This document shows positions 49,341-55,829 of a DNA stretch of 64,000 nt, piece by piece. How positions within the stretch are numbered: the stretch's first letter is position 1; each line of letters starts with the position of its first letter. The stretch covers positions 26,542 through 90,541 of the forward strand of contig JBNAVT010000005.1 of the NCBI GenBank assembly GCA_049700215.1. The letters are read 5' to 3'. The DNA is from Thermoproteota archaeon (GTDB lineage: Archaea > Thermoproteota > EX4484-205 > JAAOZP01). The notes below the pieces were generated by a model, which worked only from the letters and a program-made list of their open reading frames with translations, was not told the origin of the DNA and made no database searches. Position numbers and translations under genes: made by a program.

Positions 49341-51125
49341 CTATTTGGAAGCAGAAGAAGGTGGAGATACAGGAGGAAGCTTTTTGCTTCTTCTACGCAA
49401 TGAGAGTGCAGCAATAACAGTAATCACTACGCATACAATCCCTACTGTAAGTATCATATTAGTATAGTCCTCAGAATAAATGGCCCGCATCTCCAGCCTC
49501 GGCTCATATCCAGTGAAGACAAGGCTGACAGAGCTATCCGTAGAGTTCAGAAAACCAGTCCACTGTTTAAACACATACTTGGCGCCAAATAGGCCTAGCA
49601 GCCCAAGCATGTTCACGGAGGATGGCGCAGTCAGAGTCACCTCTTCCTCCTCCTTATATCTTCCTGAGCCAGGTATCTCAACCGCAATGTTGGAGGAAAC
49701 GTTCAAATCATACATCATCACAACCCTGATTAGCCTTACGGTGGAATTACTCGCCCCCTCGTTGTCAGTAACCGTTAGGGTGGCCAAGTAATCTCCCAGA
49801 CCATGATAATAATGGTTCACATTAACACCTGTTCCTTCCCCGCCGTCTCCAAACTCCCATTTATATAGGGATATGCTTCCATCAGGATCGTTGGAGGCTG
49901 AAGCATCGAACATTACCTTCTCTCCTAATCCTGCTTTAGCGGGCGTATAGCTGAATTTTGCTATTGGCAAATAGTTAGTGCTTATCATAATCATCACAGG
50001 CGGCGTTGTTTGGCTTTCGTATGAAACATAGCCAATAACATAGTATAAAGCACTTTTCTTGGCAGAAGAAGTATTCCATGTAGAAGTAAACTTAAGCGAG
50101 CTTCTTGGAGAAAGGGACGTGAAGTTTTGATACGAATTCCAGATGGTGCTATTTTCACCTTGTACCATGAAGACGTATTTCCCATCAAGAGCTGTTGATC
50201 CAGTGTTAAGAGCTTCAAGCGATATTCTCACCTCGTCACCTATTTTGAAGTGTTGAGGTTCAACGTTAAACCTAGTAACGTTTATCATGGACCTGCCGAG
50301 TCGGAACATGCATGTCCTCCTGTCAAGCCAGTTTCCATGAGTGTCGTTCAGCATAACCTCTACGTAATAGTCGCCAGTTGGGAGGCTCTTACTGTTCCAA
50401 ATCATCGTGAATGATGCTTGTCCCGCCACATTGTGAAGCGTTCTCAACGGTAAGCCATCAACAACATCGTCTAAACCATAACGCTTTATCAGAACACTGG
50501 CAATAACATCTTTAGCCTCGCCTGAATTGTTAAAGAAAACATTAATCGTAACTTCTTCTCCAGGATCATAGACCGGTTTTTCAGTATTAACATTCAGTAC
50601 CGAAATAGCTGAAAATATGTAGGCCACATCGAACTCGTAATGCCTGTAGAACATTGCCTCCTTTGTTCCAGGGTTGTAATAGAATGGGAAAACACTGATC
50701 ATTAGAGTGCTACTACCATCTGGATCAAGGAGAACTTGCCAACCAAAATCTTTTTCAGGATACCAGCCCTCAACTTTCTCTGGTGATGGTATGTTTTCAG
50801 ATGGAGCATCCGGATTCCAAGTGACCATGGAAAGGTTAAGGTCTTTTACCGTCGTGAGCTCAGATCTTTCTCTTATCGTGACAGCCTGAACCCTGCATCC
50901 AGCAGGGTATTCTATTGATGCAGAGTAGAAGGGAACCCTAGGCTTGCCCATTATGAGGAGTGTCCCACCGCCCGGGATATCCACATAGTCAAAGCCGCCG
51001 ATTTTCTCAACAGTATACTCAGGTACGTCGATAACTATGGTTGAAATAGGAGACTCTCCCTGAATGAGGGAGATGAAGTTCCCTAGTATTATAAGAAGGA
51101 ATAGAACCAATAGGCGATTACTCAT
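49341..51125 (-). CDS. secreted PKD-domain protein with C-terminal transmembrane anchor
   Basis: Signal LLVLFLLIILGNFISLIQG. PKD ...AKFSYTPAKAGLGEKVMFDASASNDPDGSISLYKWEFGDG...YYHGLGDYLATLTVTDNEGASN. C-terminal TM MILTVGIVCVVITVIAALSL plus RRRSKK. Confidence 0.7.
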   Translation of the reverse strand: MSNRLLVLFLLIILGNFISLIQGESPISTIVIDVPEYTVEKIGGFDYVDIPGGGTLLIMGKPRVPFYSASIEYPAGCRVQAVTIRERSELTTVKDLNLSMVTWNPDAPSENIPSPEKVEGWYPEKDFGWQVLLDPDGSSTLMISVFPFYYNPGTKEAMFYRHYEFDVAYIFSAISVLNVNTEKPVYDPGEEVTINVFFNNSGEAKDVIASVLIKRYGLDDVVDGLPLRTLHNVAGQASFTMIWNSKSLPTGDYYVEVMLNDTHGNWLDRRTCMFRLGRSMINVTRFNVEPQHFKIGDEVRISLEALNTGSTALDGKYVFMVQGENSTIWNSYQNFTSLSPRSSLKFTSTWNTSSAKKSALYYVIGYVSYESQTTPPVMIMISTNYLPIAKFSYTPAKAGLGEKVMFDASASNDPDGSISLYKWEFGDGGEGTGVNVNHYYHGLGDYLATLTVTDNEGASNSTVRLIRVVMMYDLNVSSNIAVEIPGSGRYKEEEEVTLTAPSSVNMLGLLGLFGAKYVFKQWTGFLNSTDSSVSLVFTGYEPRLEMRAIYSEDYTNMILTVGIVCVVITVIAALSLRRRSKKLPPVSPPSSASK

Positions 51126-51131
51126 AGTTTA

Positions 51132-54100: not shown

Positions 54101-55829
54101 TGTGGACCCCATTTGGGTGGAGGGTTGTGTTGCAAACCCAAACGTAGGGCGGGGAGAAATCTATGAACTTTACCACTTTATCTATGGAGAAAATTACACC
54201 CTCCACATTAACGTTATCGCTCGCGTTGGCCAAAATGTTAACGATGCCGACAAGCCTCTCCGGGAGGAACAGTGTTACTGAGGGCTTCTCCTCATCCGGC
54301 GGAGGCATGGTTTCGAAAACCATGATCTTGCTTAAGGCTAGGTTTCCACAAGGATCTTTCGACTTGACGTAGAACCTATAGGTTGTCCTTGGCTTTAAAC
54401 CCGTGATCCTTAACCAATGGTCTTTTACGAGGCCCGGGTCGTAAACGGTTTTCTCCTCCCCGGTTGAGCGGTCGCTGTAAACAACCATGTTGTCGCTATT
54501 CTTGTTCGTAACCCACTTTATAATTACCGAGTCCCGAGTAACGTTCACGGCACTTGGTCCAGATGCGATGAGTATCGGAACGGGATAAGAAGTGCAGTTT
54601 CTCTCGAGACAGTTGTTTTCTTCATCCGACTCCTTAACTTGGTTAAAGTTATCTGCACAGACCTTTACTGTAATGTTGCGACACTCTGGCCACTCATAGT
54701 CCTTAAACCAGGATTCGAAGATCTCTCCAGGTTTCAGGTCGACTCCAACCAGGTCGTGGGTAAACTCCTTACCATTCACGTGGAGCGTTGTACTATGGTT
54801 CTCCTTCGCAACCTCGCTCCCAATGTTCTTTACTACATATCCTATCAGGCTGTTGTCTCTGTCGCACCTTATCTCAGTGATTATCAGGTCCGGAAGGTTT
54901 TGCTTAAACCACTTTTCTTCAAGACAGTTGTTTCCCTCGTTAGATTCATCAATGTTTTGCTCGCAATCAGCACAGGCCCTAATAACGTGCTCGCCCGGCG
55001 CCGGCTGCCAAGCGTGGTCGAACACCCCCTCAACTTCCTCGCCGGGTTTGAGCGCCCGCGTAATCACGTGTTTTGCAACCTGCTTCCCGTCTATTGAAAG
55101 GCAGTTTTGAAAGCTATCGGCTGGCATGCCCGGCGAAGTCGTGGCAGCATCACCAATGTTCTTCACCCTGTAATGGATTAAGCCCCCGGTCTCCCATACG
55201 TCTGTTATCGCGAGGTCTGGCAGAGGTTTCGTCTCTATTCTTGCCTCTGCCCAGACAGCCCAGTCTCTGTTTGAGGTCTGCCCGGCACCCACATACAGGA
55301 TGAAATACCCTGTTTTACCTGCTAAGTAGCCTAGGTCTTTAACAATCGAATCAAGCCTTCCATCATAGGCTGCTACATGGCTTAAAACAGTATACGTATT
55401 CTGCTGCAGGTCGAGAAACCTGATCTCGAAGATAACACCGTCTGTGCCAGTGGCTCCAGAGAGGAAACCCACTCTAGCAGTTAGCTGAACATTATTCGAC
55501 ACGGTTTGTTGAGGGTATCTGCCCATTATATACCCGTTGCCAACCCACTGGGGGTGTGTTTCCAGAACCCTACTCCATGTATCACCGTCTTCAAGAAGCA
55601 CATTATTCACGTACCGTGCAAAGCCCCTGCTGTCTGACGGGTCTCCTGGAAACGGTAAAACGCCGGCTCCGCTGCTCCATTGCGCCTCAGACGCGTGCTC
55701 AATAAGGTCGTAGACCGTAGCTCCTGCCTGAACGCTGAGAATAATGTTGCTGAGGAAGCTTGCTGAAGACAGTAGGACCAGGCATGCTGAAAAACATATT
55801 AAGCTATTTCTTAAAAAACTGTTTTTCAA
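51132..55829 (-). CDS. giant (1565 aa) secreted multidomain protein: CARDB-like, FN3 and Ig-like domains, then a gingipain-like (C25, clan CD) peptidase domain interrupted by an FG-GAP beta-propeller
   Basis: Signal peptide. PDLAITDVWETGG and PDLIITEIRCDRD (CARDB-like). FN3 (...TTYRFYV). C25 start ADYIIITHPSRL...GILG, DNIYSDVVGEDVFPDLILGRI. FG-GAP repeats (FALGDVDGDSIDEVII, FAAGDVDGDGRDEIIV...). FITIYGHGNPYG (His1437). FVFSMGCNTGDY (Cys1468). GEAFFRHGAGVFVGAT. TTG/GTG start. Confidence 0.7.
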   Translation of the reverse strand: MKNSFLRNSLICFSACLVLLSSASFLSNIILSVQAGATVYDLIEHASEAQWSSGAGVLPFPGDPSDSRGFARYVNNVLLEDGDTWSRVLETHPQWVGNGYIMGRYPQQTVSNNVQLTARVGFLSGATGTDGVIFEIRFLDLQQNTYTVLSHVAAYDGRLDSIVKDLGYLAGKTGYFILYVGAGQTSNRDWAVWAEARIETKPLPDLAITDVWETGGLIHYRVKNIGDAATTSPGMPADSFQNCLSIDGKQVAKHVITRALKPGEEVEGVFDHAWQPAPGEHVIRACADCEQNIDESNEGNNCLEEKWFKQNLPDLIITEIRCDRDNSLIGYVVKNIGSEVAKENHSTTLHVNGKEFTHDLVGVDLKPGEIFESWFKDYEWPECRNITVKVCADNFNQVKESDEENNCLERNCTSYPVPILIASGPSAVNVTRDSVIIKWVTNKNSDNMVVYSDRSTGEEKTVYDPGLVKDHWLRITGLKPRTTYRFYVKSKDPCGNLALSKIMVFETMPPPDEEKPSVTLFLPERLVGIVNILANASDNVNVEGVIFSIDKVVKFIDFSPPYVWVCNTTLHPNGVHSFDATALDAAGNRAIDVKNGTIANPLPDTNPPDVQIVNPRDRGTVHGLVRIEALIQDMEYHAIPAGHIQKAEIYIDGALVRRWEYSSFRYDFFRREVVPEPPTSSLSFTHLWNTTRLEPGSEHVIEVKAWDDSGNYGRDSIKVSILRFEWAPPPLEYRIIDINVTRNVVRHDDYRTTYFVTLFVRNMGTETLYNLTLRDDVCGFQVIPHTAFMSVEFVPSFWTSTVIFKPPGEAALSPGGVATIQYYAVPILFAPTIPDDCYIFGWLDTSISFSCDGTNYGRSFQLKYHPGDLSSILRSADYIIITHPSRLFSHNPDDEDGVNSLLVQMAELARLKSGILGYLRGGLTADEIKAFISPSGAWASRLSPVFRDPNPERDNDAYVLIVGETEIVPSYTVTSHLAIPVWTGSIKLCDNIYSDVVGEDVFPDLILGRIIGENARNLMIPIQTSIDVALGHGFDRGFALGVSGYEDGGYAVHAVDIAEDVVRDLAGQGVLGETLHWSNFIRHSWSFRFTNYDAFALGDVDGDSIDEVIIASDEYDRIYVYEPMDRSLVRDFPCTFTHYDGLAASDGMIVVASNEEEHEWGTIDVYSSRTGESIASGAARFENWDALALGDFFDSAFSEEEGREIGCSGDEIVTISLDDDEIRFYTDLYSRVTLIRSRTIDIDFSRFDGFAVGNFMGEGNEIAIIRDDDECIYIYDADGRRRARIEYVGEGDTRRHVRYTRYDGFAAGDVDGDGRDEIIVVCDDDKEIYVYYWDGAKWMWSGYYSRFLGDWFYGIRYTGSPTRHDCLAIGRVIPDESPSIVIIRNRDGDLSSFEVLVPRKYWADPGSVDEWANKRVSYLGYSDYPGKAVSFITIYGHGNPYGASPLGVPYESKWGYFSQHPFVFSMGCNTGDYDSWGDSFGEAFFRHGAGVFVGATENTVCCISETVTKEFYELWDVWHIGAGKAYTLYERRMCRPHLLYPGHTGTDPLWALCFNYYGDPKFPAR

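Follow-up and report, generated by a model that had tools for sequence, protein, structure and literature searches.

A conserved archaeal gene pair encodes a predicted gingipain-family protease and a membrane-anchored partner with a prodomain-like domain

The window analyzed here, a 64,000-nucleotide stretch of a Brockarchaeota/Thermoproteota metagenome-assembled genome (MAG) from a hot spring whose nearest related loci come from Candidatus Brockarchaeota MAGs, carries two adjacent genes that encode a predicted secreted multidomain protein of 1565 amino acids (the giant) and a membrane-anchored protein of 594 amino acids (the partner). The giant belongs to peptidase family C25, the gingipain family, and the N-terminal domain of the partner, which we call domain X, is predicted to adopt the fold of a gingipain prodomain. 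The established view of gingipain-type prodomains is that they are inhibitors and chaperones, encoded in cis at the N-terminus and removable; here the prodomain fold stands on a separate protein, and in a large number of relatives it follows the catalytic domain in the same chain. The reading that we favor, and regard as probable, is that the two genes are the halves of one C25 surface protease split by gene fission, and that domain X docks on the catalytic domain and retains the enzyme at the cell surface.

The pair lies on the minus strand, and all of its features are given below in window positions. The giant is the upstream gene (55829..51132) and begins at a TTG codon preceded by AGGTGA and a 5-nucleotide (nt) spacer; its ortholog at a syntenic locus in another Brockarchaeota MAG (L006) starts at the identical position. 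The downstream partner gene (51125..49341) begins with ATG, and its product is 100% identical to the NCBI entry 'PKD domain-containing protein [Thermoproteota archaeon]'. Exactly 6 nt (51131-51126) separate the two open reading frames (ORFs). At the junction (51126..51138), a Shine-Dalgarno-like GAGGTGA (51138-51132) overlies the TGA stop codon of the giant and is followed by the 6-nt spacer and the ATG of the partner. Given their shared strand, minimal spacing and conserved adjacency, the two genes are predicted to be expressed from a single transcript. The original prediction, made from the letters of the window alone, had described two co-directional ORFs with a 6-nt gap as an apparent operon; its coordinates prove exact, and the Shine-Dalgarno-like motif over the stop codon and the tight spacing at other loci point the same way.

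A predicted gingipain prodomain fold in the partner

Domain X comprises partner residues 24-175 (50601..51056). Two motifs typical of C25 propeptides, G-x-P-x-V-P and PFYYNP, were spotted in it by eye, and its sole Pfam match, obtained at a relaxed threshold, was to Propeptide_C25 (PF08126) with 15.2 bits and E=0.012, below the cut-off of 22 bits. An AlphaFold2 (AF2) model built from an alignment of 33 homologs of the domain (A1) is all-beta, with a predicted local distance difference test score (pLDDT) of 89.7 and a predicted template modeling score (pTM) of 0.81. When this model was compared by Foldseek with the whole Protein Data Bank (PDB), six significant matches were returned, every one of them a gingipain prodomain: the best was the Kgp prodomain (5MUN, E=6e-8), with the RgpB prodomain (4IEF chains A/C/E/G) at about 1e-7 and up to 2e-7, and the next match had E=0.14. 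The superpositions gave TM scores of 0.64-0.70 and a probability of 1.00, at a sequence identity to the PDB prodomains of about 16%.

A profile comparison agrees with the fold. Alignment of A1 by hhalign with the cis prodomain of a second C25 protein encoded in the window (31184-34228, described below) gave E=1e-4, with 122 columns aligned in the register that was to be expected. BLASTP of the partner N-terminus against that same prodomain found nothing significant, so that the relation is visible by profile and fold comparison alone, and the A1 profile matched no PDB sequence. From its model, domain X has the prodomain fold, with weak sequence homology. We call it prodomain-like, and not a member of the prodomain family, because it falls below the Pfam cut-off and departs from the positional definition of a prodomain as N-terminal and on the same chain: it is encoded by a separate downstream gene here and lies C-terminal to the catalytic domain in fused relatives. 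Pfam (2025) and NCBIfam (2026) hold no model for domain X, and no NCBIfam family matches the giant, the partner or the two proteins of the second C25 pair in the window.

One segment of domain X, residues ~103-126 (50748..50819), forms a loop of about 24 amino acids modeled with low confidence, with a pLDDT of 55-76 in the single-domain model and below 50 in the two-domain model described below. Both its length and its sequence vary across A1, with no conserved basic (Arg/Lys) or other residue. Transitive alignments to the Kgp prodomain segment ...PSMSKSDD... would place this loop at the position of the gingipain 'inhibitory loop'.

Fused relatives and probable gene fission

A homolog search with the partner returned about 45 full-length relatives. 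In the fusions P0061, P0122, P0123 and P0124, the end of the C25 domain (...YNLYGDPKFG) is followed by a low-complexity linker of about 20-25 amino acids, domain X and two immunoglobulin (Ig)-like domains. An exhaustive search with the A1 profile gave 784 clusters at 50% identity, 363 of them at E<=1e-30. Among 191 sequences with domain X, 80 carry it at the N-terminus of proteins of 208-617 amino acids (the split type) and 111 carry it internally, in proteins of up to 2605 amino acids; BLAST with the P0124 catalytic domain located a C25 domain directly upstream of domain X in the internal cases. The order of domains in the fused giants (CARDB, fn3-like, Big_7, C25, domain X) is that of the giant followed by the partner, and the Ig-like region after domain X, typically of about 220 amino acids, is kept. 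Named fused forms come from Methanosarcinales, Theionarchaea, other Euryarchaeota, Chloroflexi/Anaerolineae and Caldisericia. The presence of fusions in more than 100 archaeal and bacterial cluster representatives indicates that the operon arose by gene fission of a widespread, unannotated C25 architecture.

The relation between the two domains was modeled on one of these fusions. An AF2 model of P0124 spanning the catalytic domain, the linker and domain X (alignment A3) reached a pLDDT of 85.8 and a pTM of 0.83, with a 17-residue linker predicted to be disordered. Its catalytic half matched Kgp (4RBM, E=9e-15) and RgpB (4IEF_B and 1CVR, E about 1e-13), and its domain X half matched the 4IEF A/C/E/G and 5MUN prodomains. 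A pTM of 0.83 in spite of a floppy linker suggests that domain X packs on the catalytic domain of P0124 in a defined way. The gingipain catalytic fold was tested on this relative, and the catalytic domain of the giant is collinear with it but contains a 354-residue insert.

The packing bears on an alternative in which domain X, though of common ancestry with prodomains, serves as a structural or foldase element placed after the catalytic domain, and the partner is an independent stalk or adhesin not stably bound to the giant after folding. Consistent with this idea, most members of the family have domain X on the C-terminal side of the catalytic domain, where gingipains have their immunoglobulin-superfamily domain (4RBM and 1CVR descriptions), its Propeptide_C25 score stays under the cut-off, and the architectures beyond it vary widely. 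The fixed packing suggested by the pTM of the P0124 model speaks against it, as does the strictness with which adjacency or fusion is kept over very large distances, and a split without binding would part two pieces that are one chain in relatives. We consider this alternative rather unlikely.

In a neighbor-joining tree of domain X, which is rough given a domain of 150 residues and biased sampling, the split and fused states require 13 changes, compared with 57 in shuffles, and the partner falls within a pure split clade of 25 representatives. This distribution suggests that fission or fusion occurred a few times and that the resulting states were then inherited vertically. It also bears on the possibility that the split is an artefact of MAG assembly or a recent pseudogenization, in which the second ORF would not be separately translated: the source is a MAG, most family members are single-chain, and at least one related locus (L041, see below) is frameshifted. 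That the split is not an assembly artefact is argued by the Shine-Dalgarno-like motif and ATG of the partner gene and by the hydrophobic signal peptide that its product has where the fusions have a hydrophilic linker. Such signal peptide-like N-termini are found in 63 of 73 split-type homologs, and the fused homologs have a low-complexity, hydrophilic linker of about 20 amino acids in the same place. Moreover, the same split, with spacing of -32 to +6 nt, is seen at no fewer than 12 independent loci, with identities as low as 36%, and among 73 cluster representatives, and the split forms cluster phylogenetically. An artefact is therefore largely refuted, and we regard it as highly improbable.

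Two further features of the fused relatives were observed. About 220 amino acids past domain X, P0122, P0123, P0061 and some 40 more proteins end in a tail of the form (V/I)YLP(L/I/V)(V/I)(L/M)(R/K), for example HVYLPLVMRRR, and a smaller group ends in CFILGPFVIKIKET; such tails look like C-terminal sorting or attachment signals, and the window has no counterpart of them. On the contig of P0124 (L015:459-6310), NosD/beta-helix, CARDB, fn3-like and Big_7 modules are carried by a separate 957-residue ORF that overlaps the C25-domain X-dockerin ORF by 40 nt, an arrangement that reflects either a frameshift or fission of this architecture at another point.

Conservation of the gene pair

Side-by-side genes for the giant and the partner occur at about 30 of 31 related loci, a count that includes some redundant metagenome contigs. 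Outside the window, a C25 gene directly precedes the partner gene at 12 loci, in unrelated genomic contexts and with -32 to +6 nt between the two. In the pair from Methanomethylicus mesodigestus, the giant is 38% identical over 1268 amino acids and the partner 36% identical; adjacency is also found in four Brockarchaeota/Thermoproteota loci, and six more contigs with unrelated flanks keep the pair, the minimal forms being a C25 protein of 781 amino acids with a partner of 464 and a C25 protein of 897 amino acids with a partner of 346. A metagenome scan yielded 21 loci for which 200 nt or more of upstream sequence was present, some of them repeating the loci above; at 20 of the 21, the C-terminal half of a C25 domain ends just before domain X, with 17 split and three fused. 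At the sole exception (L041:1153-2182), no C25 gene precedes, the partner gene is in two frames and domain X is truncated after about 100 amino acids; this locus may be a decaying orphan or contain sequencing errors.

Co-occurrence was established from the side of the partner, since a homolog search with the C-terminal 705 amino acids of the giant gave seven proteins and was probably swamped by FG-GAP words. Because the adjacency recurs at essentially every related locus examined, the pairing is far beyond chance, and the conclusion that the giant and the partner form a conserved functional unit is supported. The original prediction had offered co-occurrence of homologs across genomes as its own check, and the outcome that they never co-occur is decisively contradicted by the adjacent loci together with the more than 100 fused forms.

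The giant protein

The giant (51132..55829) was dissected by Pfam profiles into C25, CARDB, Big_7, fn3-like and FG-GAP regions. Residues 1-35 (55725..55829, ..SVQA/GA) are hydrophobic and form the putative signal peptide, or perhaps a signal anchor: Kyte-Doolittle hydropathy shows a single hydrophobic segment at residues 5-35, with a stretch of 28 amino acids. The earlier claim that the protein has a signal peptide and no obvious anchor thus stands as far as this segment is the only one, and is weakened by its length, which leaves a signal anchor possible. Residues 36-200 (55230..55724) make up a conserved N-terminal domain that is 90-96% identical to that of the L006 ortholog; these 165 residues have no Pfam match at E<=1 and no NCBIfam match. 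A string of Ig-like modules follows at residues ~203-865 (53235..55223), with two CARDB domains (~205-410), an fn3/Pur_ac_phosph_N module (425-507), two Big_7-like modules (528-579 and ~608-696) and an unassigned CARDB-like beta domain (~725-865) that abuts the catalytic domain. Residues 720-870 gave no match to any Pfam family.

The catalytic domain is interrupted. Peptidase_C25 (PF01364) matches the giant with 56.3 bits against a cut-off of 23, split over two stretches. The N-terminal part (residues 870-1045, 52695..53222; DYIIITHP..., YVLIVGETEIVPS...) was assigned by profile and collinearity: profile positions 65-142 correspond to residues ~955-1022, and the region aligns collinearly with P0124 and with further C25 domains. 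The C-terminal part (residues 1400-1565, 51135..51632), which ends in ...YYGDPKFPAR, corresponds to profile positions 229-371 at residues 1428-1561. Nested between the two, within a loop of the catalytic domain, is a beta-propeller-type insert of 354 residues (1046-1399, 51633..52694), recognized by FG-GAP_3 (30.2 bits, cut-off 26.9, three stretches) and FG-GAP (22.9 bits, cut-off 22.1, two stretches) over residues 1080-1410. This insert is present in related loci L001, L004, L009, L010 and L012 and absent from the L006, L007 and L011 orthologs and from P0124. The orthologs without the propeller (L006:8761-9904, L007 and L011) have a different, partly helical insertion of about 150-200 amino acids at a roughly equivalent place.

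The catalytic dyad lies C-terminal to the propeller and consists of His1437 (codon 51519-51521, in YGHGN) and Cys1468 (codon 51426-51428, in SMGCNTG), which phmmer aligns with RgpB His211 and Cys244 (1CVR and 4IEF_B). Judged from its sequence, the catalytic domain is apparently intact, and the description of the giant as clan-CD-peptidase-like is borne out by the C25 score and the aligned dyad.

Family C25 also includes the type IX secretion sortase PorU (reviewed in PMC5445135), and the giant could be a PorU-like transpeptidase or sortase, or an inactive binding protein, that processes or attaches the partner or other surface proteins. The many adhesion-type modules and the FG-GAP propeller would suit such a role. 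The closest structural matches of the catalytic domain, taken from the P0124 model, are however Kgp and RgpB, archaea are not known to have type IX secretion, and both the giant and the partner lack the C-terminal domains of the type IX secretion system. The intact dyad argues against an inactive protein and cannot separate a hydrolase from a transpeptidase. We give this alternative little credence.

A prodomain was sought in the giant as well. Pfam gave no Propeptide_C25 match in the whole protein or in segments that included residues 720-870, and comparison of the giant with the domain X profile by hhalign gave a probability of 0.3%. Residues 725-865, which are prodomain-sized and stand directly before the catalytic domain, were considered as a candidate cis prodomain and set aside, as they have no sequence support and show CARDB-like motifs. 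With no cis prodomain detectable, the giant departs from the canonical zymogen organization of C25 proteases.

The partner protein

The partner (49341..51125) consists of a signal peptide, domain X, two Ig-like domains, a PKD domain, a beta domain and a transmembrane (TM) anchor. Its signal peptide occupies residues 1-23 (51057..51125, MSNRLLVLFLLIILGNFISLIQG/ES) and coincides with a hydrophobic segment at residues 1-25 (..LIQG/ES). After domain X, residues 176-385 (49971..50600) form two CARDB-like Ig domains, identified through weak Pfam matches to the Glyco_hydro_66 N-terminal domain, Wzt_C, MG2 and fn3_5; homologs carry precomputed CARDB or MG2 matches there. The PKD domain at residues 386-465 (49731..49970) is recognized by PKD_4 with 78.1 bits (cut-off 27) and by PKD with 51.9 bits (cut-off 23.5). 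A C-terminal TM helix at residues 557-576 (49398..49457), under a hydropathy peak of 2.84 at residues 553-579, is followed by RRRSKK and a Pro/Ser tail that extends to 49344. The hydrophobic segments at both ends and the basic tail confirm the earlier assignment of a signal peptide at one end and a membrane anchor at the other.

The anchor appears to be a plain TM helix with a basic tail: the C-terminus (...EDYTNMILTVGIVCVVITVIAALSLRRRSKKLPPVSPPSSASK) contains no PGF motif of the PGF-CTERM/archaeosortase type and has no NCBIfam match. A C-terminal TM helix is found in 38 of the 73 split-type homologs, and the architectures beyond domain X differ widely, from PKD plus TM to TM alone, dockerin or none.

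A variable cassette spanning the junction

Comparison with the syntenic L006 locus, which has in common with the window the flanking genes for a flap endonuclease, a kinase and fumarate hydratase, revealed a cassette of 2.28 kb (50644..52920) that spans giant codons ~970-1565, the junction and partner codons 1-160, as delimited by BLASTN and protein identity profiles. BLASTN identity to L006 is 84% over 59000-52921, disappears over 52920-50644 apart from 63 nt, and resumes at 76% over 50643-47840. At the protein level, residues 1-950 of the giant are 85-95% identical, and the remainder of the catalytic domain, which has no FG-GAP insert in L006, is 15-30% identical; residues 1-150 of the partner are 40-56% identical and residues 151-594 are 66-92% identical. 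The same pattern is seen in L007 and L011. The identity profile indicates that the replaced unit consists of the part of the catalytic domain that bears the active site together with domain X. On the right-hand side, the breakpoint falls where domain X ends, which fits selection for matched pairs; as a sign of co-evolution, the joint divergence of the two pieces is weak evidence.

Proposed mechanism

In the mechanism that we propose, the giant would be exported via its signal peptide, and the partner would be exported separately by a Sec-type route and held in the membrane by its C-terminal TM helix. The stalk would run outward from the membrane through the beta domain, the PKD domain and the two Ig-like domains, placing domain X at the membrane-distal tip. 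There, domain X would bind the catalytic domain of the giant non-covalently, rebuilding an arrangement that is one chain in relatives, and would in this way retain the secreted enzyme at the cell surface. Domain X may also act as a chaperone and/or, by way of its variable loop, as a lock on the active site that persists until either that loop or the whole domain is cleaved or displaced. The role of the complex would probably be extracellular protein degradation. As for the earlier suggestion that the partner tethers or presents the giant, the C-terminal TM helix and the conserved unit stand, and the prodomain-fold tip supplies a candidate interface; the physical binding we infer, and inhibition or latency is a possibility.

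Several points weigh against this reading. A divergent cis prodomain may be present at giant residues 725-865, the negative result there coming from sequence methods. The hydrophobic stretch at the N-terminus of the giant is long enough for an uncleaved signal anchor, and it might itself anchor the giant and make a tether by the partner unnecessary. Most relatives have domain X permanently attached behind the catalytic domain, and its role may thus be structural, or that of an adaptor, and not that of a removable lock. The variability of the loop and its disorder in the two-domain model argue against a fixed, substrate-like inhibitory insertion and, taken with the permanent tether in the fused relatives, against a classical removable lock. 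Finally, the catalytic half and domain X lie side by side in the DNA, so that a single recombination tract could have replaced both, and no co-adaptation is needed to explain the cassette.

The points that concern the loop apply equally to an alternative that gives inhibition the leading part, in which domain X is a trans-acting inhibitor that provides latency or self-protection, the enzyme becomes active after release, for example by cleavage of the loop or of domain X, and tethering is a by-product. The prodomain fold, the ability of Rgp prodomains to inhibit in trans with nanomolar inhibition constants (PMC4138498), the precedent of membrane-anchored potempins in the peptidase operons of Tannerella forsythia (PMC9890683) and the presence of a variable loop at the inhibitory-loop position would all be expected from such an inhibitor. 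Lack of conservation in that loop, together with its predicted disorder even when the catalytic domain is modeled alongside, and the permanent attachment of domain X in the fused relatives would not, and a coupled operon that makes both proteins 1:1 would leave none of the enzyme active. We entertain this alternative only tentatively.

The reading that we favor, docking and retention of a split protease, can also be extended into a two-component protease in which an anchored prodomain captures and gates the enzyme, a cassette of warhead plus lock is swapped between strains and diversifies specificity on a constant scaffold, and an unannotated C25 branch of at least 784 clusters at 50% identity, archaeal and bacterial, is characterized by a permuted zymogen. 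This extended form strikes us as conceivable and on balance doubtful.

Relation to known systems

The prodomains of gingipains are about 200 amino acids long and attach laterally to the catalytic domain, non-covalently and with nanomolar affinity (PMC4138498). Rgp prodomains inhibit in trans at low-nanomolar inhibition constants through a substrate-like inhibitory loop, which in RgpB is Lys121-Tyr135 with Arg126 in the S1 pocket, and the Kgp prodomain shows negligible inhibition in trans (PMC4138498). The system described here has in common with RgpB and Kgp of Porphyromonas gingivalis (4IEF, 5MUN, 1CVR and 4RBM) the catalytic fold, as judged from the P0124 model, and the His/Cys dyad. In both, a beta-sandwich domain of prodomain fold and about 150-200 amino acids accompanies the catalytic domain, and Ig-like domains come after the catalytic domain. 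Unlike in the gingipains, the prodomain-like domain here is encoded after the catalytic domain by a gene of its own, whose product has a signal peptide and a membrane anchor, and in relatives it is fused on the C-terminal side; a C-terminal domain for type IX secretion is lacking, a 354-residue FG-GAP insert is nested in the catalytic domain, and the putative loop has no conserved Arg or Lys.

Anchored proteins encoded beside secreted peptidases are known from Tannerella forsythia, where potempins act specifically on their neighboring KLIKK peptidase at the cell surface (PMC9890683) and, as here, the gene for the anchored protein stands beside, and co-directional with, that for the secreted peptidase. 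Potempins are lipoproteins of 98-132 amino acids that are encoded upstream of the peptidase and are not described in the abstract as prodomain-like, in contrast to the downstream-encoded prodomain homolog on a 594-residue stalk found here.

Prodomains that are separate or C-terminal occur in other families. Streptococcus pyogenes encodes a small, cytoplasmic propeptide-like inhibitor, Spi, downstream of speB, CTLA-2 resembles a cathepsin propeptide, and legumain, of clan CD and family C13, has a helical C-terminal prodomain that caps its catalytic domain. The principle is alike in all three, but they belong to other families and folds, and none is an anchored multidomain stalk. In searches of the literature we came across no account of a C25 prodomain that is C-terminal or encoded in trans, nor of a split operon of this kind.

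Among archaea, extracellular gingipain-like C25 proteins have been annotated in the sediment lineages MBG-D/Thermoprofundales and Bathyarchaeia, where they are thought to serve the degradation of detrital protein (PMC6461988 and PMC6752024). Those proteins resemble the giant in being secreted archaeal C25 members, and the studies, by their titles and abstracts, are of genome annotation and ecology. Brockarchaeota, for their part, have been reported to encode unidentified extracellular peptidases (PMC8065059). Both sets of reports agree with the degradative role proposed for the pair.

At this locus and in its family, the prodomain fold is placed after the catalytic domain, and several archaeal lineages carry it on a separate membrane-anchored protein. 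If the proposed binding is true, the pair would represent a natural split-zymogen or docking system that keeps a large secreted protease at the archaeal cell surface. To our knowledge, archaea have neither type IX secretion nor sortase-type attachment. The assignment also provides a functional annotation for the N-terminal domain of proteins labeled only 'PKD domain-containing' and a new domain family for databases. A recombining cassette of catalytic domain and prodomain may underlie the diversification of substrate specificity in protein-degrading archaea of hot springs and sediments.

A second C25 locus in the window

The original prediction had also held that the pairing recurs within 20 kb, in a gingipain-like protein at 31184-34228 and an anchored neighbor at 34219-36078, and this part of it fails. 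The protein at 31184-34228 is a canonical C25 precursor, in which an N-terminal Propeptide_C25 match in cis (22.9 bits) is accompanied by a continuous Peptidase_C25 domain (135 bits) and a domain resembling the InlB B-repeat; its sequence matches the Kgp prodomain 5MUN with E=8e-4. The neighbor, whose gene overlaps it by 10 nt, combines CarboxypepD_reg with Ig domains of the Big type, a stretch of poly-Pro and a TM helix at its C-terminus, and no domain X was found in it, either in a hidden Markov model scan of the window or by hhalign (probability 0.2%). The cis prodomain and the lack of domain X exclude the two proteins as a paralogous system, and the likeness reduces to a C25 gene beside a gene for an anchored Ig-domain protein. 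The giant and the 31184-34228 protein are thus alike in belonging to family C25, in their predicted secretion and in having an Ig-domain neighbor with a C-terminal TM helix; they differ in prodomain order and in the continuity of the catalytic domain, and their catalytic domains are barely alignable.

Directly upstream of the 31184-34228 gene and co-directional with it lie a full-length serpin gene (Pfam Serpin, 401 bits, with an N-terminal extension of about 97 amino acids) and a DUF192 gene (29004-31058), and a serpin beside a gingipain-like protease may be another protease/inhibitor arrangement. Downstream of the second pair, the window encodes a DUF5518 membrane protein on the plus strand (36100-36486) and a 515-residue ATPase of the T2SSE/AAA type on the minus strand (36531-38078).

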